From a virus, in the UHGV virus genome UHGV-0271399: a stretch of 36,671 bases of DNA; one strand, written 5' to 3'. The notes beneath the pieces are model-generated. The model saw only the letters and a list, made by a program, of their open reading frames with translations, did not search any database and was not told the origin of the DNA. Shown piece by piece: positions 1-36,056 of the stretch. Each line of letters opens with the position of its first letter. The stretch's first letter is position 1. Made by a program: the position numbers and the translations under genes.

Positions 1-615
1 GATAGCCTCATCAATAATAAGGCTTTATGCTAGATGCATTCTGCTTTGCGACTCAACCTTTTTCACCTAAAGGATGACAAAATCACATAAATAATTTAAA
101 AATCATAGCATTAGATTACTTAATGATTAAATAATAGACTGCAAAACGCGACAAAACACATCATATCCAGTCACTATGAATCAACTACTTAGATAGTATT
201 AGTGACCTGTAACAGAGCATTAGCGCAAGGTGATTTTTGTCTTCTTGCGCTAATTTTTTGTCGTAAAATCGGTAACGGCTGGAAATCATTCAATACTCGC
301 ACTATCGAAAGTTCGCCAGCCAGCCGCAGCACGTTCTTGTATACGACGTGGCTGCGGCTTTAACTCCCGCCAGCTCCACCACTTTTGATAGGACTGCAAC
401 CGGACAGCGGCAATAAAATCAGCCAATTACGGACACTGACCAGACAGTGCGCAGACCGAGAAAAGACAAAAATATGCACGTGAAATGCACGTGCACTTTA
501 AAAGAACCCCAGATCTCACGGTCTGAGGTTTTTCTATTTGTAATTAAGGGTAACAAAAACATGTCCCTTTCTCGCGCTGCGCTCGCCTTGACACTGTTTA
601 TTTTTACAGTAAAAA

Positions 616-635
616 TACTGTATACAACCACAGTG
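616..635 (+). promoter_or_regulatory. LexA (SOS) box upstream of dinI-like gene
   Basis: CTGT-N8-ACAG at 618-633 (TACTGTATACAACCACAGTG), about 20 nt upstream of GGAGG RBS and ATG at 653. Confidence 0.6.
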
Positions 636-652
636 GTTTTCCGGAGGCTTTT

Positions 653-919
653 ATGTTCGTTGAACTGGTTTATGACAAGCGAAATGTAGAGGGGCTCGAA
701 GGGGCCAGAGAAATTATTCTGGCAGAGCTGACGAAACGAGTGCACCAGATCTTCCCTGATGCCGAAGTAAGGGTGAAGCCGATGCAGGCGAACGGCTTGA
801 ATAGCGATGCCAGTAAAAGCGATCGGGAAAAGCTGAACCGCATGCTGGAGGATATGTTTGAAGAGGCCGATATGTGGCTGGTATCTGAGTTCCCGACAGT
901 TCGCCAAGTTGGGCTGTAA
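653..919 (+). CDS. dinI: DinI-like DNA damage-inducible protein
   Basis: 88 aa; small acidic protein with DinI-family hallmarks (AELTKR...FPDAEV...WLVSE); GGAGG RBS; LexA box upstream. Confidence 0.7.
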   Translation: MFVELVYDKRNVEGLEGAREIILAELTKRVHQIFPDAEVRVKPMQANGLNSDASKSDREKLNRMLEDMFEEADMWLVSEFPTVRQVGL

Positions 920-1145
920 AATTGTGCAGGCTGCCAGCCTAAACATTTACCGGCAGCCTGCATCATGTCTATCCACTACCTACCGGGAATTTTCGGTAGA
1001 GTGTCGAAACGCCGACGTCGTAAATGATTGCCACACGCTGGCACGTTTCCCCCGCCTTCCTCACAACCTTTCGATTCTGAAACTCTATACCTAAAATACA
1101 ATTAAAGTTAAAATGCTTTCTAACATCGTTAAGTGAGATTATCAG

Positions 1146-2171
1146 ATGAATTCATCAAAAAACAAAATGGATGGCATCACCATATTGCGGTTCTTTGCTG
1201 CATTTTATGTATTTATTTTTCATATCAATATGCGAGCCCCAGTTGACTTTGGTTCTCATTTAAATAAAACCATTTCAAACGGGGCAATAGGAATGAGCAT
1301 ATTCTTTATGCTTTCTGGATTTGTCCTTACATACAATTATTATGATTCTCAGTTGCTTGATTACTTTAAAAAAAGAATAGCAAGAATTTACCCAGCTTAT
1401 TTATGCTGCGGAATTATATCATTCCCATTTCTTTTTACTGACAATTTAACCTCAGGGCAAATTATATCATGCTTAGTCCTATATTTAGTATGTATGCAGG
1501 CATGGATATACCAATCATTCAGCCTGTGGAATTTTGGTGGAACCTGGTCAGTATCAGTTGAGATGTTTTTTTATTCTTTATTCCCTTATATACTAAAGAT
1601 AATAAATAAAGACAACTTGATTTTCATAACACTTTTTGCATACGGTTTTTCTGCTGTGCTTGTTCCAATTTCTCTGATTATTGGTGGGCCAACCGTGGGT
1701 TCCGTTTACTACGCCACTCCGATTTTTAGGCTTCCTGAATTTATTGTCGGAATATGTGCAGCCATGTATTTCATAAATGGGAAAAGAATAAATAATATTA
1801 CTTTTTATATTTCTGTGACTATGTTTTTTTATGCTACCACACTATCCGATGTTAACATGGATACAAACTACTTAATAATACCAACACTTGCATTAATTAT
1901 ATGTTATTTGGGAAACCTAGAAATAACCAAAAACATATTAACATCTTGCCTTATTTATTTGGGTGACATCAGCTATTCATTTTATTTGATGCAGCTGCCA
2001 TTGCTAATGTATCTGGACAGAAATCCAGATACATTCTTAAGAACTCACGGTATTGCTAGTTGGATACTTGTCTTTTTGTTAAATCTTGCAATGGCTATGT
2101 TGTGTTGGCATTTCATAGAGAAAAATTCGATATTGAGGTCCTTATTTTTAAGAAAGGAAGCACGAGCCTAA
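1146..2171 (+). CDS. Acyltransferase family 3 integral membrane protein (O-antigen O-acetyltransferase-like lysogenic conversion gene)
   Basis: 341 aa, multi-TM, N-terminal ILRFFAAF...FH and FFMLSGF motifs typical of acyltransferase_3; strongly AT-rich; sits next to tail fibre/Tfa genes on the opposite strand. Confidence 0.7.
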   Translation: MNSSKNKMDGITILRFFAAFYVFIFHINMRAPVDFGSHLNKTISNGAIGMSIFFMLSGFVLTYNYYDSQLLDYFKKRIARIYPAYLCCGIISFPFLFTDNLTSGQIISCLVLYLVCMQAWIYQSFSLWNFGGTWSVSVEMFFYSLFPYILKIINKDNLIFITLFAYGFSAVLVPISLIIGGPTVGSVYYATPIFRLPEFIVGICAAMYFINGKRINNITFYISVTMFFYATTLSDVNMDTNYLIIPTLALIICYLGNLEITKNILTSCLIYLGDISYSFYLMQLPLLMYLDRNPDTFLRTHGIASWILVFLLNLAMAMLCWHFIEKNSILRSLFLRKEARA

Positions 2172-2182
2172 ATTAGGCTCTG

Positions 2183-2626
2183 TCACAATTTTTCTGGCGA
2201 AGTGGGCCAAATAATTTCTGGTGCTGTAGAAATATCTACAGCATACAATGTATCAAGATAATCTAGCCAAATACTATATCTTTCCAATTCTTCATCTTTT
2301 AGACGCCCAAGCGCCGCTTTACCCGGCCATTGTTTACCATTTATGTATTCATTAGCTTGATCAATCAGTGATTGTTTTTTTGAAACCGCCATAGCTTTTT
2401 GCTCTTCATGAGTGGGCGGAGGGATTTCTCCCCATGATGGCAATCCATCACCGCTCGATACTCTTATTTTTCCTGCTGGCGGGGAAACTGAATACTGGTT
2501 GAATATCTCATCGCTAATCCCAAGCGCATCGGAGGGCCATGAACCAGCCTGTTCATATCGCTTGCGAAGATCTGCTGGGTAAAAGCTATTCATTTTTGGA
2601 CTGTAATAATAGTTGTAATTCATCAT
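2183..2626 (-). CDS. tfa: Tail fibre assembly protein (Tfa)
   Basis: N-terminus MMNYNYYYSPKMNSFYPADL...AGSWP and C-terminal IIWPTSPE typical of Tfa chaperones; ATG at 2626 sits 1 nt after the fibre stop; track start 2683 is an upstream GTG. Confidence 0.7.
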   Translation of the reverse strand: MMNYNYYYSPKMNSFYPADLRKRYEQAGSWPSDALGISDEIFNQYSVSPPAGKIRVSSGDGLPSWGEIPPPTHEEQKAMAVSKKQSLIDQANEYINGKQWPGKAALGRLKDEELERYSIWLDYLDTLYAVDISTAPEIIWPTSPEKL

Positions 2627-2627
2627 A

Positions 2628-3383
2628 TCAAAACCCCTCAGCCATCCAACGTAATGATCTGTTATTGAAGAAAACTGAACCACCTGTGCTCAAAATAAAG
2701 ACTATCATTCTATTATTTTCAGGAACGATGGATATCTCAAATGGTGTTTGGTTCGGGACACCATCCTCAAATATAGCAAAACAATCAACACAACCATTCG
2801 GAAATGCAATTGGGAAATTGATTACAAGGGAGTTTCCCGTACCATCAGGTGCCGTGACTTTCCCACCCTGTTTAATCAGCAATCCCGGCCCTTTTGAAAC
2901 AAATGAATTTATTGTTCCATTAAATGAAAACCCTAGATTGTTCTGCGCTGCACCTGCATCCGGGCTACCAATAACAGTGCGGCCAATATCCGTTAGACCA
3001 GTCAGGGCCATGGTGTCATTGCCATTGAAATATGGCAATTTATTAGCTGCACCCGTTAGTGATGCCAGTGCCGTCAGCGTGGCATCAAGCGCCTGGAAAT
3101 CCTTACCGAACGCGGTGGTCATTTTGATAATGAACCCGTTCAGATCACCATCATCAAGTACATCCAGCCCGCTTTTGTTGGCGGTGTACTGCGCCAGCGC
3201 TGCCGCGATAAAGCTGGCCTGCCGAATAGCCTTGTTGACTTGCGCACTGGATGCTTTCCCTGCTGTAAATCCGGATAAAAGCGCAGGCAACGCTTCCCAT
3301 TCCTCCTGCGACATAACATTGGCATTTTTACCCGTTGCAAACGCTTTAAAGTCATTTTTCGCCATCAGAGTAATACTCCCCAT
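2628..3383 (-). CDS. Tail fibre protein (short)
   Basis: 251 aa Gly/Asn/Thr-rich protein immediately upstream of Tfa; alternative coupled start at 3365 (TGATG overlap with upstream gene). Confidence 0.6.
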   Translation of the reverse strand: MGSITLMAKNDFKAFATGKNANVMSQEEWEALPALLSGFTAGKASSAQVNKAIRQASFIAAALAQYTANKSGLDVLDDGDLNGFIIKMTTAFGKDFQALDATLTALASLTGAANKLPYFNGNDTMALTGLTDIGRTVIGSPDAGAAQNNLGFSFNGTINSFVSKGPGLLIKQGGKVTAPDGTGNSLVINFPIAFPNGCVDCFAIFEDGVPNQTPFEISIVPENNRMIVFILSTGGSVFFNNRSLRWMAEGF

Positions 3384-4045
3384 GCTCCTACATCAAAACC
3401 ACTGATGAATTCGTTATCCATATCAAAACCAAAAAATTTTGAGCCTTCCGATGGGGTTTCCACCGAAGGTGTTTCAATGCCACCCGCCCATACCCCGGCG
3501 GCTTTTACTGTGAGATACCCCTGTTTAATTGCCGCAATTAACTCACGCGATACATCTGAAATATCAGTATCAGGAAAGACCCAGACCGATATCGTCATGT
3601 CCTGGTTATCGACTATCTGCATTCGCAGCCCGGATCCTGCTGTTGCCGCGTCAAGAATTGCCGGAAGCGAATCATTCCGTCCGTCCCAGTTATTAATCGC
3701 AATCTTCGCTTTAAGAATGACACGATAAGTTTCATCGCTGAGATACATGTATCCAGAATCAGGATCATATGGCCCCTGCCATACACCCTGATCATATCCA
3801 AGCCCGTCGGTATCCCAGCTGAAATAGACACCTGAAATAGGCTGGCTGACAACACGGCTACGTCCGATCCACAATCCCAGAATGTCAAGTTGCATACCAA
3901 CCGCAGAGTCAATATCAAATGCAGTAATCAGCCCTCTGGTGGCAGCCGCAACATCAATAAGTGGCCGGGTCATCAGATCAACATGCGCAAGAAATTTAGG
4001 TTTGGTGGCGTGATGGTTTGTGATTAGTTCGGTGTATTTGCTCAT
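3365..4045 (-). CDS. Baseplate wedge / fibre-attachment protein (Mu gp48 / P2 gpI-like)
   Basis: 226 aa; position between baseplate J and tail fibre; ATGA overlap with gpJ-like stop. Confidence 0.5.
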   Translation of the reverse strand: MSKYTELITNHHATKPKFLAHVDLMTRPLIDVAAATRGLITAFDIDSAVGMQLDILGLWIGRSRVVSQPISGVYFSWDTDGLGYDQGVWQGPYDPDSGYMYLSDETYRVILKAKIAINNWDGRNDSLPAILDAATAGSGLRMQIVDNQDMTISVWVFPDTDISDVSRELIAAIKQGYLTVKAAGVWAGGIETPSVETPSEGSKFFGFDMDNEFISGFDVGAWGVLL

Positions 4046-5241
4046 GATTCCACCGTTATAACGATATTTACCGGGGTACAGGACGCAGATTCGTTATATC
4101 TGATATCAATGTTTGATGACGACAAAGCCCCCGGGGATTTCCCAATCGTCAGTTCCTGAATATCGTAATAGCGTGCATTCCCGCCACTCACCACGCCAAG
4201 ATTCGCCGGTGAGTAAATGCGACTTAAAAGGACCGAATCACCGATCGTCAGACTATTGATATAGTCGGAAATAGCCTGCTGGATCTGCTGCCCTATCTGT
4301 GAGGTATAACCCGTAAAAACTTTTAATTTAATCCGGGCATAAACAGGTACATCACTGGAACGCGAGAATTTGATTACATGGGGATTGCCGTATTTATCCG
4401 GAACCGTAACGGATGTTGTACCGTGAGTGGCTGTCCCCTGGCCTTTATTCCCTCTGATAGCCTGAGCAATATCCGTCACATCACCGCCATCCACAATTAC
4501 AGCAACAGAGTGTGGCGGTAACCCGTTACCGTCCTCCGAACCAGTATCGTTTTCATAGAGTTTGTGGCGGGTTACACCGGTAACATTAGAAACAGCACCA
4601 TCCAGTGCTTCAAATGGGGTTATTGATGGCAATGCAACACTTTGCGACTGGCGGATACGTAACTCAGCATCAGTTTCTGCCGGAGAGCCAACAGTAGCCG
4701 CAGCAGGATTAGTTACCGAAACCCAGCCACGGGTTGGCGTATTAATTTCAGTGATAGTTCCAGCCAGCGCCGCCACTGCACCACTGACGGAACATGTTGC
4801 GGTCGCCATCACTGTACCATCCACGCCGACCACCACTGAAGCAGGCAAACGCCATATCACATTATTACTGTCTTTCACGCTGCCATTAATGATGGTTGTT
4901 CCGGCAGTTCCTGTAAGAAGCAAATCAACCGTAGAGTTCGTCGCGCCTTTACGTGAAATACCATTTATTTTCACGTTACTGGTCAGTGCAGCCCCATAGC
5001 CGGTTGCCGGTGAAAAACAGTTGTAGACAGTTATCGCCATATTATTGGCATCATGAATCGCCAGCGCCATCAGAGCCACCATCTGGCCGTCTTTGCTGTC
5101 CGGTTCGAGGTAGGCATCACTGCCATAAATCTGCTGAAAATAGCTAATCAGGGTGCTGAGTATCGTCTGATAATCAGGCGCACTGATCCCCTCCGCGGTT
5201 ACCTTTGCAGATAAACCGAGAGAATCAAGGTTCAGAGCCAT
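4042..5241 (-). CDS. Baseplate J-like protein
   Basis: 399 aa; size and position typical of gpJ/Mu gp47-like baseplate protein. Confidence 0.7.
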   Translation of the reverse strand: MALNLDSLGLSAKVTAEGISAPDYQTILSTLISYFQQIYGSDAYLEPDSKDGQMVALMALAIHDANNMAITVYNCFSPATGYGAALTSNVKINGISRKGATNSTVDLLLTGTAGTTIINGSVKDSNNVIWRLPASVVVGVDGTVMATATCSVSGAVAALAGTITEINTPTRGWVSVTNPAAATVGSPAETDAELRIRQSQSVALPSITPFEALDGAVSNVTGVTRHKLYENDTGSEDGNGLPPHSVAVIVDGGDVTDIAQAIRGNKGQGTATHGTTSVTVPDKYGNPHVIKFSRSSDVPVYARIKLKVFTGYTSQIGQQIQQAISDYINSLTIGDSVLLSRIYSPANLGVVSGGNARYYDIQELTIGKSPGALSSSNIDIRYNESASCTPVNIVITVES

Positions 5242-5594
5242 TACGCCTCCGATGTAACAGTCGTTATTCCATAGAGAGTGTCGATTTCAGCGGAAAACAT
5301 GACACGTCGGGTCGTGGTATCCACCGTCGTATTGAAAGAGAGGATTGATTTAACGCCCCGCGTTTCCAGAATGCGTTTTCTGATCGCCAGGTTGTAAGTT
5401 TCCGGTTTTTGCCTGCCCAGCACGGACTGGATCCACGGAGTCCCCTCGGTGGTGTCGAGAAACCATTGCCCATACCACAATTCGAATCGCGTTTTTACCG
5501 CCTGCGCCACGGCCTCCGGTGAGTTAATCAGCCAGGTGTCATCACCGCTGCCAAAGGTGTAATCGCCATCGGCGTCTTCACGTCTGTATCGCAT
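5241..5594 (-). CDS. Baseplate wedge protein (gp25/gpW-like)
   Basis: 117 aa; small protein directly upstream of gpJ-like gene. Confidence 0.5.
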   Translation of the reverse strand: MRYRREDADGDYTFGSGDDTWLINSPEAVAQAVKTRFELWYGQWFLDTTEGTPWIQSVLGRQKPETYNLAIRKRILETRGVKSILSFNTTVDTTTRRVMFSAEIDTLYGITTVTSEA

Positions 5595-6346
5595 CAGTTT
5601 ACCCCATCGGTATTGCTTCCACCGCGCTGAACACCGCCATGAGTGTGCGTATCATCGATTGGCTTGCCGTTAGCCTTAACGCTCCCCAAGAACTCAACAG
5701 CACCAGTGATTTTTGAAGCCACACCAGAAACAACAGACCCCACCATGCCCCCCATCCAGGTTAACAGGCCATGAATGGTTACTTTCTCAGAAAAATCAGC
5801 CAGAGGGGCAACCACATCAAGACCACCCGGGGCGACAATTTTAATTTTCCGGGTATCAGGATTAAGCTCAAAATAGGTGCTGCCGTCGTCACTACGCAAC
5901 TGTGTGACACTGGTATTAATACCGCTAATCTTCCTCGCCTGCGACTGGGGACCGACAATACAAAATGCATCCGATAAATCATGCATTCTGTCATCGACCG
6001 GCTCCTGTATCCCACCGCTCTGCCACCAGAAATCAATACAACGATCGGCAAAAACGACAAGACACTCATCCCCGGCTTTAACCGGAAAAGTCAACGTACA
6101 GCCTCCGCCGCGCGGAAATACCACTGGCACATCCACCAGCAACGGGTAATTTTTGGTAATGCGGTTACCGTCGTTATCCTTTTCAACCGAACGGATAGCT
6201 GGCTGCACAACCGCCGTCACCGCGTCGGGATCGAATGACTGAACAATGCCAGGCAAGGCGACACGGATCTGGTTCTTTGTTGTTTCCCGTTCAGATTTGA
6301 ATGTTTCGGCAAGGTCGCCGCTGCGGGTCTGGTCAGATACTGCCAT
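5594..6346 (-). CDS. Baseplate assembly protein V-like / central spike
   Basis: 250 aa; N-terminal OB-fold-like region (IRVALPGIVQSFDP...VPVVFP) resembling gpV/Mu gp45. Confidence 0.5.
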   Translation of the reverse strand: MAVSDQTRSGDLAETFKSERETTKNQIRVALPGIVQSFDPDAVTAVVQPAIRSVEKDNDGNRITKNYPLLVDVPVVFPRGGGCTLTFPVKAGDECLVVFADRCIDFWWQSGGIQEPVDDRMHDLSDAFCIVGPQSQARKISGINTSVTQLRSDDGSTYFELNPDTRKIKIVAPGGLDVVAPLADFSEKVTIHGLLTWMGGMVGSVVSGVASKITGAVEFLGSVKANGKPIDDTHTHGGVQRGGSNTDGVN

Positions 6347-22305: not shown

Positions 22306-22551
22306 GTGAGAAAATTAATCGTATTTGTATCTTTTTGTTCGGCTTTAGGCTTTGGCTATCAAGCCATAACCAGTCAAACATTATCCACAGCGCTAGCAGC
22401 ATTAGCGAGTTTGGTCGTTTTTCTAACAGCCTTAGCAAATCTAAAAAGCAACAAAGCTAAAGAGCAAGGTGTTAGCCAAACAATCGGCGATAACTCTAGC
22501 GGTATACAAATTGGTGGCAACATAACTATTAATGAAAGGGACAAAGAATGA
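22306..22551 (+). CDS. Small membrane protein (unknown; first gene of AT-rich cassette)
   Basis: about 81 aa from GTG 22306 with GGAGA RBS 5 nt upstream; two hydrophobic helices; stop overlaps next ATG (ATGA); no in-frame ATG, so start uncertain. Confidence 0.45.
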   Translation: MRKLIVFVSFCSALGFGYQAITSQTLSTALAALASLVVFLTALANLKSNKAKEQGVSQTIGDNSSGIQIGGNITINERDKE

Positions 22552-23453
22552 GCTTATTCGAGAAATCCGGTCAAAGTGTGGGTGATAACTCCTCAGCTAT
22601 ACAAGTTACAGGTGATGCCTACTTTGGCAACACCACTACTGAGGTCATGGCTATTTGCCAGTTAATGGTCAAAAGTGAAATGGCTTCGCTTCGTGAAGAT
22701 GCATTCGCTTTAGTCGACTCACGGGCTCAAGAATTTGGTCACCAAATTGCAGAAAAACTATCTAAAGATGTTGATGAAAAACTAAGAGCAAAACTCGCTG
22801 ATCCCGATATTCAGTACACCCTCAATCAAGCAGTCGTTCAGGTCGCAAGAAAGGGGTTTGATGCAAAATCAGAACTTCTTAAGGAGTTAATAGTTACTAA
22901 AATTGAAAACGATCAAGAAGACCAAAGCATTTTGATCGATCAAGCGTTAGATACAACATCCAGACTGACCACTAATGATATTAAGTTTTTGGCATTTGTA
23001 TATTTTTTACGTTCAATCAATAAGATGATAGGAAGTATAAATATCACAGAACTTGCAGAGAAAAAAAGTACTCATTTTTCACTACCTAACATTTCCTTGG
23101 AAGAAAATTACATGATCCATAGGTCAATGTATGCTGTTTATGAAACAGATTATATAAAATTTCTTGGAGAACATTTCACCCTCAAACGCCTAAATCAGCA
23201 GCTATTAGAAATTAAAGGCGTATTTTTCTCAGATAAAATATATAATATCAATTACTTAGAGTTATTATCAAAAAGAACGGGTTATGACACTCTTACATCT
23301 GATGCATCATTTTATGAAGCATTCCCAGCTACAAAATTAGTTCTCGACTCTTTTGGTATTTCAACCCTTACAGAACTTGACTCACTAGTCATCAATCCAG
23401 TAGGTATAATTATTGCGGAAAATTATCTCAAAGCTCATGGATATATCAGTTAA
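22548..23453 (+). CDS. Hypothetical 301-aa protein (unknown; candidate accessory/defence gene)
   Basis: long uninterrupted ORF, AT-rich, coherent codon usage, AGGG RBS; no recognisable phage structural or regulatory motif. Confidence 0.7.
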   Translation: MSLFEKSGQSVGDNSSAIQVTGDAYFGNTTTEVMAICQLMVKSEMASLREDAFALVDSRAQEFGHQIAEKLSKDVDEKLRAKLADPDIQYTLNQAVVQVARKGFDAKSELLKELIVTKIENDQEDQSILIDQALDTTSRLTTNDIKFLAFVYFLRSINKMIGSINITELAEKKSTHFSLPNISLEENYMIHRSMYAVYETDYIKFLGEHFTLKRLNQQLLEIKGVFFSDKIYNINYLELLSKRTGYDTLTSDASFYEAFPATKLVLDSFGISTLTELDSLVINPVGIIIAENYLKAHGYIS

Positions 23454-34225: not shown

Positions 34226-34549
34226 ATGGATGCACAAACACGCCGCCGCGAACGTCGCGCAGAGAAACAGGCTCAATGGAAAGCAGCAAATCCCCTGTTG
34301 GTTGGGGTAAGCACAAAACCAGTTAACCGCCCTATTCTCTCGCTGAATCGCAAACCGAAATCACGAGTAGAAAGCGCACTAAATCCGATAGACCTTACAG
34401 TGCTGGCTGAATACCACGAACAGATTGAAAGCAACCTGCAACGTATTGAGCGCAAGAATCATCGAGTTTGGTATAGCAAGCCAGGTGAGTTCGGTATAAC
34501 TTGTCAAGGAAGACAAAAGGTTAAAGGGAAATCCATTCCATTGGCATGA
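34226..34549 (+). CDS. N: Antiterminator N
   Basis: 107 aa from ATG 34226 (AGGAGA RBS), near-identical to lambda N (MDAQTRRRERRAEKQAQWKAANPLL...). Confidence 0.9.
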   Translation: MDAQTRRRERRAEKQAQWKAANPLLVGVSTKPVNRPILSLNRKPKSRVESALNPIDLTVLAEYHEQIESNLQRIERKNHRVWYSKPGEFGITCQGRQKVKGKSIPLA

Positions 34550-34557
34550 GGTACGTA

Positions 34558-35427
34558 ATGAAGAAGATTGATTACAAGTCCATACCAAAACCAATAGACT
34601 CAGCATCAGAGCGAAAAAAACACAAAAAAGAGGCTGAAAAATTAGTAAATTATATCAGTTTTATTAGAAACAATGCTCACGGCGATGGCGACAAGAAGTT
34701 GCTTTCAGATGCTCGGACCCAAGCGTTCGGTATACTTCGTAAGCAGATGCAATATCGTCTTCATCCAGGCTACATAATTGAAATTCGCCCTACTGAAAGA
34801 CAATTGTTCTTATTAAACTCTGTCTTTGACTTTGTAAACGTAGTTGGAGATCTTATCGACAGATCTGTAGATAAGGATCCTGATACAAATAGTTTTCTTC
34901 TAACAAATAAAGAATACTTATATGGTAAATTCGGTATAAACGGATGGCAAAAATATGTACGCTTCTTACGTGCATTCGTTGATGCGTATAAAAATTCCGA
35001 CATGATTTATACATATTTGCCTGGTGGTGATAATTGTACGCTTTCGGCAGACAATAGAATATTCATACCTGTACTTGGTCTTGGGCTGATTAATGCAGTA
35101 AATGAAAGAGATGTTATAATTGTTAAGCAGTGGCGAAAATATGAGGGATATAGATATCTGCCATGCTTTGATATATTAAAAATACAGAATAAATTCTATG
35201 TAAAAATTAAATATAAAGAAGATATTTTCTTCCTCAGAAAAAACAAAGATCTTTTACAAGAACTTTCTGGTACAATAGATGTCATCTTAGGTTCTAGGTT
35301 TATAAAAGAACTGAAAGAAAGCAGGTCTTTCTCTCGTGTAGAGATAAGCGAGTCAGAGTTATGGGGTATATCAAATAATCCTGTAAACCACGCTCACCAA
35401 CGAAACCCAAACAAAAAGTGGTCATAA
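34558..35427 (+). CDS. Hypothetical ~289-aa protein in pL operon (unknown; candidate exclusion/defence gene)
   Basis: ATG 34558 with GAGG RBS (alternative ATG 34546 overlapping N stop); AT-rich; Lys/Tyr/Asn-rich; occupies the ral/sieB position between N and ea10. Confidence 0.7.
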   Translation: MKKIDYKSIPKPIDSASERKKHKKEAEKLVNYISFIRNNAHGDGDKKLLSDARTQAFGILRKQMQYRLHPGYIIEIRPTERQLFLLNSVFDFVNVVGDLIDRSVDKDPDTNSFLLTNKEYLYGKFGINGWQKYVRFLRAFVDAYKNSDMIYTYLPGGDNCTLSADNRIFIPVLGLGLINAVNERDVIIVKQWRKYEGYRYLPCFDILKIQNKFYVKIKYKEDIFFLRKNKDLLQELSGTIDVILGSRFIKELKESRSFSRVEISESELWGISNNPVNHAHQRNPNKKWS

Positions 35428-35569
35428 CCCGCTTAGGCGGATTTCATTTTCACGCAAACAACAGAATAAACACTGCACTGTGTATTCATTCCAACGAGTG
35501 AATACACGGAGCAATGTCGCTCGTAACTAAACAGGAGCCGACTTGTTCTGATTATTGGAAATCTTCTTT

Positions 35570-35596
35570 GCCCTCCAATGTGAGGGCGATTTTTTA
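35570..35596 (+). terminator. Putative rho-independent terminator
   Basis: GCCCTC/GAGGGC stem with 6-nt loop followed by GATTTTTTAT. Confidence 0.45.
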
Positions 35597-35615
35597 TCTG
35601 TGAGGATATGAACAG

Positions 35616-35984
35616 ATGTCAAACATCAAAAAATACATCATTGATTACGACTGGAAAGCATCAATAGAAATTGAAATCGACCATGACGTAATGACAGAGG
35701 AAAAACTTCACCAGATTAATAATTTCTGGTCAGACTCTGAATACCGACTAAATAAACACGGCTCTTTATTAAATGCTGTATTAATCATGCTGGCGCAACA
35801 TGCTCTGCTTATAGCAATTTCAAGCGACTTAAATGCATATGGTGTTGTGTGTGAGTTCGACTGGAATGATGGAAATGGTCAGGAAGGATGGCCTCCAATG
35901 GATGGTAGCGAAGGAATAAGAATTACCGATATCGATACATCAGGAATATTTGATTCAGATGATATGACTATCAAAGCCGCCTGA
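35616..35984 (+). CDS. ea10: Ea10-like protein
   Basis: 122 aa acidic protein at the lambda ea10 position upstream of cIII; identification from recalled similarity only. Confidence 0.6.
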   Translation: MSNIKKYIIDYDWKASIEIEIDHDVMTEEKLHQINNFWSDSEYRLNKHGSLLNAVLIMLAQHALLIAISSDLNAYGVVCEFDWNDGNGQEGWPPMDGSEGIRITDIDTSGIFDSDDMTIKAA

Positions 35985-36056
35985 GCGCGGCGTTACCGCA
36001 TACCAATAACGCTTCACTCGAGGCGTTTTTCGTTATGTATAAATAAGGAGCACACC

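Follow-up and report, generated by a model that had tools for sequence, protein, structure and literature searches.

Phage-borne acyltransferase-3 genes and the locus analyzed

Phage-borne genes of the acyltransferase-3 (AT3) family that lie beside receptor-binding genes are a textbook case of lysogenic conversion. Here we analyze such a gene in the UHGV virus genome UHGV-0271399, a stretch of 36,671 nucleotides that is referred to as the window in the following. The window is one end of an Escherichia coli prophage abutting torT, and in strain TUM14697 its first position directly follows this gene. The AT3 gene at positions 1146–2171 lies beside the tail fiber genes, is foreign-looking and intact, and certainly encodes a stand-alone AT3 membrane acyltransferase. 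The function with the best support for this enzyme is acetylation of the O-antigen, resulting in lysogenic conversion, which we favor on circumstantial evidence and with some reserve. Two modest observations are new, namely the restriction of the AT3 subfamily to particular serogroups and the position of the gene in the wreck of a fiber-inversion system.

Oac of Shigella phage Sf6 (OacA; OacB/C/D group) is a proven O-antigen acetylase, whereas the window protein is a candidate one. Both are stand-alone AT3 proteins of similar length (333 and 341 amino acids, respectively) that share the essential motifs of the family, but they are only 22% identical (pairwise E = 7e-8) and belong to different subfamilies. 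In Sf6, the phage-borne oac gene is AT-rich cargo that is located at the end of the prophage and faces the tailspike gene in convergent orientation, much as the AT3 gene of the window is convergent with the genes for the tail fiber assembly protein (Tfa) and the fiber. The carriers differ, however, with Sf6 being a P22-like podovirus with a tailspike and the phage of the window being contractile-tailed with fibers, and oac lies beside int whereas the AT3 gene lies beside the remnant of an invertase gene.

OafB of Salmonella phage BTP1 (family II GtrC) and OafA contain an AT3 domain with R-X10-H and RXXR, as does the window protein, which is 25% identical to BTP1 OafB over this domain. In contrast to the window protein, OafB and OafA have a fused periplasmic SGNH domain. 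OafB is encoded within gtr operons, and one relative of the window protein is likewise paired with a GtrA-like gene. According to the literature on these enzymes (PMC9558356/PMC9833829), O-antigen acetylation by the prophage-encoded OafB of BTP1 protects against the phage’s own tailspike.

The closest E. coli relative, with 57% identity, is an O7-associated prophage AT3 protein (WP_000204788 in IAI39 and WP_012777356 in REL606; P0004), which is likewise uncharacterized. Its gene (32% GC) is part of the same module as in the window, in which an invertase remnant is followed by the AT3 gene, by a Tfa gene in convergent orientation, and by the fiber gene. This module is carried by phages of other tail types, which are integrated at att-lambda, ssrA, and proL, whereas the prophage of the window is integrated at torT. 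Its Tfa is 36% identical to the window Tfa, and its hosts are of serogroup O7, not O39.

An intact, stand-alone AT3 acyltransferase

With 341 open codons in DNA of 33% GC and a full-length domain match, the open reading frame (ORF) of the AT3 gene is not a product of chance, and RefSeq annotates a gene with identical coordinates as ‘acyltransferase family protein’ (WP_001088918.1). The GC content of the gene is 33.0% (32.5% at third codon positions, GC3), compared to 51.8% in the structural block (positions 2183–22284) and 48.7% in the whole window. The protein matches PF01757 (Acyl_transf_3) with 92.4 bits (cut-off 31; E = 3.8e-26) over residues 10–321 and model positions 3–325 of 326, and its best PHROG match is the family phrog_3333, ‘O-acetyltransferase’ (E = 2.6e-40). 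The first-pass annotation of this DNA had described an ORF at this place that is convergent with the Tfa gene at the fiber end of the prophage, is much AT-richer than the structural genes, and bears the signature of membrane acyltransferase family 3. Our data agree with all of this, including coordinates, orientation, setting, composition, and family signature.

The Pfam search found neither a second domain in the 341 residues nor a fused SGNH or other C-terminal domain. Judged by its domain content, the protein has the stand-alone (‘AT3-only’) architecture of Oac, WbaK, and Lag1, unlike the AT3-SGNH fusions OafA and OafB. No equivalog matched the protein in the NCBIfam search, and PADLOC gave no match to anti-phage defense families.

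As described in PMC9833829 and PMC9558356, the essential motifs of AT3 enzymes are R/K-X10-H in transmembrane helix 1 (Arg14/His25 in OafB; absolutely conserved), RXXR at the cytoplasmic face of transmembrane helix 3, and V-x-x-F-F-x-(I/V/L)-S-G-(F/W/Y). The window protein retains R15-X10-H26 as the first motif, R77-I-A-R80 as the second, and FFMLSGF (residues 53–59) as the FFx(I/V/L)SG(F/W/Y) part of the third; a W134-SVSV-E139 motif is intact as well. In an alignment of 46 homologs with identities down to 32%, the residues R15, H26, F53, F54, S57, G58, R77, W134, E139, Y143, and Y189 were invariant, and R80 and E325 were at least 90% conserved. The AlphaFold model obtained from this alignment (mean per-residue confidence, pLDDT, 92.1; predicted template modeling score, pTM, 0.91) is all-helical with about 10 long transmembrane helices. 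A hydropathy scan placed 10 positions of its sliding window above the threshold, several of which overlap, so that about seven distinct regions are represented.

The only strong structural matches of the model were the transmembrane acyl-CoA transferases HGSNAT, which was the top match, and GWT1. These eukaryotic proteins exceed the window protein in size, have other acceptors, and are 10–13% identical to it. The resemblance is one of fold and mechanism, not of family membership at the sequence level. By analogy with characterized AT3 enzymes, the protein would bind cytoplasmic acetyl-CoA in a central membrane cavity via Arg15, Arg77, and Arg80. Via His26, together with the conserved Tyr near position 189, the acetyl group would then reach a hydroxyl group of a sugar at the periplasmic face.

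A comparison of the AT3 gene with its 79%-identical homolog from Enterobacter yielded 0.12 nonsynonymous differences per site (pN) and a saturated value of 0.76 for synonymous sites (pS), which indicates purifying selection. Nonsynonymous changes are few relative to the other phage-borne relatives as well, with synonymous sites saturated. The ORF is thus not decaying but codes for a maintained enzyme.

Linkage of the closer relatives to receptor-binding genes

None of the 683 homologs found in the homolog search carries an experimentally based name. The best matches in phage records are 24–29% identical and include proteins of TL-2011b (29%) and BTP1 (GtrC/OafB; 25%, experimentally proven). 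The AT3 protein of TL-2011b is annotated as an O-acetyltransferase, and its activity is not known to have been tested.

All relatives with at least 46% identity and a readable context are convergent with a fiber or Tfa gene at the end of a prophage. In Enterobacter asburiae, the 79%-identical gene is located at the end of a lambda-like prophage, where it is flanked by umuDC and, in convergent orientation, by a fiber gene. A 57%-identical relative in a defective prophage at att-lambda is convergent with a Caudo_TAP gene, which is the arrangement seen in E. coli B, and a 55%-identical relative in a P2-like prophage is convergent with genes for Tfa and an H-type fiber. A Phytobacter myovirus prophage carries a 46%-identical relative, which has int and an S24 repressor gene on one side and is convergent with a fiber gene. 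Another relative with 46% identity, from a metagenome prophage of the same wedge and baseplate type as the window, has a GtrA-like gene (PF04138) directly upstream (L102, positions 720–2165). The context of a 60%-identical relative from an O7:H7 strain (P0009) is unreadable, as it adjoins yejM at a contig end and the downstream gene is cut off. Altogether, the linkage to fiber genes spans five tail types (lambda-like, P2-like, DUF2612-type, the second myovirus baseplate found in Phytobacter, and the GP46/YmfQ baseplate). Relatives at 40–45% identity, which come from Enterobacter, Leclercia, and Photobacterium, are single genes in the chromosome that have neither a phage nor an O-antigen context.

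Two further observations concern these loci. The pairing of a GtrA-like gene with an AT3 gene recalls gtr operons that have an acetyltransferase gene as their third gene. Furthermore, the defective att-lambda prophage of E. coli B contains a second, longer AT3 gene (381 amino acids), which precedes the 57%-identical relative by about 2 kb and lies at positions 4066–5211 in the examined REL606 locus (L107) and 5088–6233 in locus L005.

Single-gene cargo at a mosaic prophage end

The sister prophages A41, KSC64, A15, and 873.10 have the same wedge and baseplate genes as the window but no AT3 gene. In A41, which is integrated at ssrA, the Tfa gene directly follows dinI, and in KSC64 and A15, both integrated at torT, it is the last gene before the attachment site. 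The AT3 gene was present in only 3 of the 5,426 complete E. coli genomes. These genomes, Rb-23, TUM14697, and 1002W03, contain positions 1–3400 of the window at 100% identity, whereas this part was covered to at most 23% in all the others. The DNA similarity to the 79%-identical Enterobacter homolog (75% over positions 1131–2120, plus strand) starts 15 bp upstream of the ATG and ends about 50 bp before the stop codon. Because it is confined to this interval and the flanks are unrelated, it indicates a single-gene cassette. Phage-borne relatives of the AT3 gene have GC contents of 32–39%, whatever the host. From these comparisons, the gene is optional single-gene cargo, a moron.

The attachment-site end of the prophage (positions 1–1052) is a mosaic. 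Positions 1–268 are common to prophages at torT, whereas positions 354–925 are common to the ssrA prophage of A41 and begin with a copy of the ssrA 3′ end (354–381). The whole interval 354–1052, which includes dinI and the last 84 nt of the invertase gene, matches prophages integrated at ssrA, although the prophage of the window is located at torT. The dinI gene belongs to this block, which was derived from an ssrA-integrating prophage. On the other side of the AT3 gene, the part coding for the N-terminus of the fiber (from about 2980–3133 onward) is common to all sister prophages, whereas the fiber tip and Tfa are specific to the phage of the window.

In an index of public assemblies, 239 blocks contain the exact window protein. 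An identical DinI-AT3-Tfa-fiber-baseplate module occurs at a second chromosomal site near mltF-tadA (GCA_030003655.1 and GCA_964049745.1), which shows that the phage lysogenized independently more than once. A 99%-identical variant of the protein (P0001) is encoded in the same module on metagenome contigs.

The AT3 gene in the wreck of a fiber-inversion system

The gene on the other side of the 90 bp upstream of AT3 is a remnant of a Pin/Gin-type serine DNA invertase gene, which RefSeq lists as ‘HTH domain protein, missing N-terminus’. Its translation, ...RVAIIYDVGVSTLYRKFPVGSG*, is the C-terminal DNA-binding helix of Gin/Pin/Hin-type serine invertases. At the same place, next to the Tfa gene, the sister torT prophage 873.10 has a frameshifted ‘recombinase family protein’ gene, which translates as a typical serine invertase (MIYGYARVSTNHQ...GRRPKFT...STLYKRFP). 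In ‘isolate 44’, ssrA is followed by dinI and an intact recombinase gene in convergent orientation, and the Tfa gene lies beyond on the recombinase strand; the window matches this isolate up to and including the last 84 nt of the recombinase gene. The remnant and its intact or near-intact counterparts in ‘isolate 44’ and 873.10 therefore indicate that the AT3 cassette replaced the 5′ four-fifths of the invertase gene and whatever lay between this gene and the Tfa gene.

In phages of the Mu, P1, or e14 type, the space between the invertase and Tfa genes is filled by alternative, inverted fiber-tip genes, and in the Mu layout the alternative U′/S′ genes are on the strand opposite to Tfa. The AT3 gene of the window has this same orientation, opposite to Tfa, as alternative fiber-tip genes would have. 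Its location, with the Tfa gene on one side and what is left of a Pin/Gin-type invertase gene on the other, also resembles the G segment of Mu, the C segment of P1, and the P segment of e14, which are inverted by Gin, Cin, and Pin, respectively. While sister prophages of the window keep the invertase, only 29 codons are left in the window, and the likeness to invertible fiber segments reflects the history of the locus, not a present mechanism, as no inversion is possible. No crossover-type inverted repeats were found at the AT3 locus, where the best repeat was only 74% complementary and misplaced. A functional invertible segment that controls the AT3 gene was rejected on the grounds of the 29-codon remnant and the lack of such repeats.

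Similar remnants (...QKVAIIYDVGISTLYKKFPVGDK*) are located upstream of the 57%-identical AT3 gene in IAI39 and T309.Ta3, and REL606 has a more degraded copy. The module of invertase remnant, AT3 gene, and Tfa gene is thus either old or recurrent. The earlier description of the AT3 gene as AT-rich cargo at the fiber end of the prophage is borne out by its absence from four sister prophages and by its deviant GC content. That account of the locus was also right about the position of the gene, but it had missed the wreck of the invertase gene and the nature of the insertion as a single-gene cassette.

Serogroup distribution and candidate substrate

A relaxed DNA search detected relatives of the AT3 gene, with a DNA identity of about 67%, in another 66 E. 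coli genomes; they correspond to the 57%-identical protein. The carriers include IAI39 and CE10 (O7:K1), MIN14 (O7:H4), and the lineage of E. coli B, which has an ‘O7 family’ wzx in its O-antigen cluster. The O7 wzx gene was found in 95 of the 5,426 complete genomes. Among the AT3 carriers listed, at least 51 of 57 were O7-wzx positive by comparison with the 82 O7 genomes listed; this count is a lower bound, since the remaining six carriers may be among the 13 O7 genomes outside that listing. The association with O7 was strong even at the lower bound (Fisher test, p = 4e-83), although this value is uncorrected for clonality and inflated by clonal laboratory strains of E. coli B. The 57%-identical gene occupies three integration sites, att-lambda in E. 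coli B, ssrA in IAI39, and proL in T309.Ta3, and is accompanied by the same Tfa at all three, which indicates at least three separate entries into O7 backgrounds. The 60%-identical relative P0009 mentioned above also stems from an O7 strain (O7:H7). Genomes of the BL21(DE3) type are O7-wzx positive and were not among the AT3 carriers listed, which included BL21 and REL606. The att-lambda neighborhood may have been altered in these genomes when DE3 integrated.

The window allele itself occurs in an O39 lineage, in which Rb-23 and 1002W03 have an intact O-antigen cluster with O39 wzx and wzy according to the genome annotation. The O39 and O7 clusters share the pathways for dTDP-rhamnose (Rha; rml), dTDP-4-acetamido-4,6-dideoxyglucose (Qui4NAc; vioA/vioB), and GDP-mannose (Man; manCB). 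A restriction to particular serogroups is expected for an enzyme with an O-antigen-specific function, and it would be hard to explain if the substrate were an invariant one such as enterobacterial common antigen (ECA), the core, or periplasmic glucans.

If the gene is expressed in the lysogen, as we infer, the most likely acceptor would be the lysogen’s undecaprenyl-linked O-antigen, here an O39-type unit with Rha, Qui4NAc, and Man. Its acetylation would change the cell surface, resulting in lysogenic conversion, and would reduce the adsorption of phages that use the O-antigen. O-antigen modification had already been proposed in the first-pass annotation, which also stated that serotype-converting phages carry O-antigen acetylase genes at this position. 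The latter is in line with Sf6, where oac is likewise convergent with the tailspike gene. The former receives circumstantial support from the O7 restriction, the O39 background, and the GtrA-like partner, but a close characterized acetylase was not found: the homology search that had been suggested retrieved Oac/OafA-type acetylases only as remote relatives, and no NCBIfam equivalog.

Several findings weigh against O-antigen acetylation. The characterized acetylases are only 22–29% identical to the window protein (Sf6 Oac 22%, BTP1 OafB 25%; TL-2011b 29%), and at such identities the substrate of the AT3 protein is not readable by homology. Other molecules that AT3 enzymes modify are ECA, periplasmic glucans, capsules, and Nod factors (PMC9558356). 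The glycosyltransferases of O39 and O7 are unrelated and not orthologous, which means that the two O-units share sugars but not linkages. The AT3 gene is absent from 13 of the 15 O39 genomes and is therefore not part of O39 synthesis. A literature search on O-acetylation of O39 or O7 gave nothing relevant, with the O39 structure itself lying outside its scope. Moreover, the association with O7 and O39 could stem from the hosts that the carrier phages are able to infect, through the linked fiber tip and Tfa, and not from the substrate of the enzyme. A consensus promoter scan of the 90 bp upstream of the AT3 gene (1056–1145) found nothing above the threshold. Finally, TUM14697 keeps the AT3 gene and has no O-antigen cluster, as cpsG is joined directly to gnd (NZ_CP128888.1, positions 1806000–1856000). 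This strain has lost the genes from wcaJ to galF together with the entire O39 O-antigen cluster, apparently via recombination between cpsG and the manB of the O-antigen cluster, whereas Rb-23 and 1002W03 keep the cluster. TUM14697 is predicted to be rough and colanic-acid negative and, having lost the cluster, has no O-antigen to modify.

Alternative explanations and expression of the gene

The enzyme may be active and acylate a different envelope glycan, such as ECA, the lipopolysaccharide (LPS) core, capsule or colanic acid, or periplasmic glucans, and affect phages and the host through that molecule. We consider this possible but rather unlikely. All of these are known targets of AT3 enzymes (PMC9558356), the 40–45%-identical relatives stand alone in chromosomes, and the identities to proven O-antigen acetylases are only 22–29%. 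The gene also remained intact in TUM14697 after the loss of the O-antigen cluster, and E. coli B strains, which are rough, have likewise retained the 57%-identical relative. However, TUM14697 and the B strains seem to have lost the O-antigen recently, and these losses are hardly informative on the original function. The tight restriction of the subfamily to particular O serogroups is difficult to reconcile with ECA, core, or periplasmic glucans as substrates, and the consistent linkage to receptor-binding genes as well as the one pairing with a GtrA-like gene also argue against this explanation. The lack of an NCBIfam equivalog match argues against WecH and OpgC functions in particular, provided that the library includes models for these enzymes, which we believe it does.

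It appears improbable that the gene is an intact but silent passenger, which is either not expressed, for example due to silencing by H-NS, or expressed only during lytic growth, and which causes no serotype conversion in the lysogen. DNA with 33% GC is a typical H-NS target. No sigma-70-like promoter in the upstream 90 bp passed the scan, where inspection by eye revealed two candidates that match the consensus at 8 of 12 positions each. A strong hairpin makes read-through from dinI unlikely, and the AT3 gene is divergent from the dead invertase gene, so that there is no obvious inherited promoter. Still, a consensus scan is crude, and AT-rich DNA often has non-canonical promoters. The strong purifying selection (pN 0.12 versus a saturated pS), the retention of all catalytic residues across relatives on many phages, and the occurrence of the identical protein in 239 assembly index blocks and at no fewer than two integration sites all speak against a silent gene.

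Concerning the hairpin, its fold is much more stable than expected (z = −4.5; 0 of 200 shuffled sequences fold as well), and it is probably a terminator for the convergent dinI gene and invertase remnant. Two matches to the LexA box (CTGT-N8-ACAG) occur within 60 bp upstream of dinI, compared to 0.34 expected in the whole window. Co-transcription of the AT3 gene with dinI driven by the SOS response was nevertheless rejected as unlikely because of the strong hairpin after the dinI stop codon. Phase variation was rejected too. A Dam/OxyR phase-variation signature was not seen, as the upstream 90 bp contain no GATC, and homopolymer runs of 7 are as expected in DNA of 33% GC. The palindrome at the end of the AT3 gene is a weak terminator-like hairpin that does not differ significantly from shuffled sequences (z = −1.5 and −1.8).

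The transfer of an acyl group other than acetyl to a glycan, for example succinyl as by OpgC or a longer chain, is very improbable, because the phage-borne AT3 enzymes characterized so far are acetyltransferases, the best PHROG match is an O-acetyltransferase family, and the top structural match HGSNAT uses acetyl-CoA, even though several acyl-CoA donors are used within the AT3 family (PMC9558356) and the structural neighbor GWT1 transfers a long acyl chain.

Wider implications of the proposed O-antigen acetylation

If the enzyme acetylates the O39 antigen (and its relative the O7 antigen), two E. coli serogroups would join the short list of those for which O-acetylation by a phage-encoded enzyme is known. 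Such acetyl groups matter for serotyping, for the epitopes in glycoconjugate vaccines, and for the range of hosts open to therapeutic phages. Judging from the tight link between AT3 alleles and O serogroups, prophage AT3 genes could serve to predict the O-antigen that is recognized by a temperate phage.

A more far-reaching proposal, which we put forward only tentatively and with considerable doubt, is that the AT3 gene, Tfa gene, and fiber tip form one portable unit that both recognizes and masks the receptor. Such a unit would have arisen when the AT3 gene replaced the invertase and the alternative-fiber half of a host-range switch, and the subfamily would be specific for O-antigens with Qui4NAc, Rha, and Man (O7 and O39). 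If this is true, the AT3 allele of a prophage would predict the O-type that its phage uses as receptor, and these phages would have traded host-range flipping for receptor modification.

Features of the locus and other AT-rich regions

The features of the AT3 locus are compiled in Table 1. The Tfa gene is given with its RefSeq start at 2626; the mechanically called ORF extends over 2183–2683 on the minus strand. Beyond the fiber gene follow the genes for a DUF2612 wedge protein and then baseplate J.

Table 1 Coordinates of genes and sequence elements around the AT3 gene in the window.
Feature	Position	Strand	Remarks
LexA-box matches (two)	594–609, 618–633		Upstream of dinI
dinI	653–919	+	Cargo gene neighboring the AT3 gene; element 594–919 including the LexA-box matches
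Hairpin, 12 bp, GC-rich	924–961		Between dinI stop codon and invertase remnant
Remnant of Pin/Gin-type serine DNA invertase gene	969–1055	−	Last 29 codons, ...RVAIIYDVGVSTLYRKFPVGSG*
AT-rich 90-bp region upstream of the AT3 gene	1056–1145	+	
Sigma-70-like promoter candidate 1	1069–1074 (TTTCGA), 1092–1097 (TAAAAT)		17-nt spacer; 8/12; by eye, below scan threshold
Sigma-70-like promoter candidate 2	1086–1091 (TATACC), 1109–1114 (TAAAAT)		17-nt spacer; 8/12; by eye, below scan threshold
Shine-Dalgarno-like GTGAG	1133–1137	+	Weak
AT3 membrane O-acyltransferase gene, stand-alone	1146–2171	+	341 amino acids; ATG start; 33% GC
Palindrome GAGCCTAAATTAGGCTC	2163–2179		Spans the AT3 stop codon; between AT3 and Tfa genes
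Tail fiber assembly protein (Caudo_TAP, Tfa)	2183–2626	−	147 amino acids; 41% GC; E = 2e-30; convergent with the AT3 gene
Tail fiber, gp53-like C-terminal domain	2628–3365	−	Adjoins Tfa

Two other AT-rich regions were noticed in the window. A second island at positions 22401–23453 (37% GC) has the small terminase gene on one side and a Rha-like gene on the other. It contains an ORF of 301 amino acids (22548–23453, plus strand) on the strand opposite to its neighbors, which had neither a Pfam nor a PADLOC match and whose sole match was phrog_19542 (unknown function); this ORF is a candidate for a further cargo gene. A third AT-rich stretch at positions 34401–36000 (37–38% GC), past the CI-like repressor gene, contains an ORF of 293 amino acids (34546–35427; phrog_12139, unknown function) and a DUF2528 gene (35616–35984).

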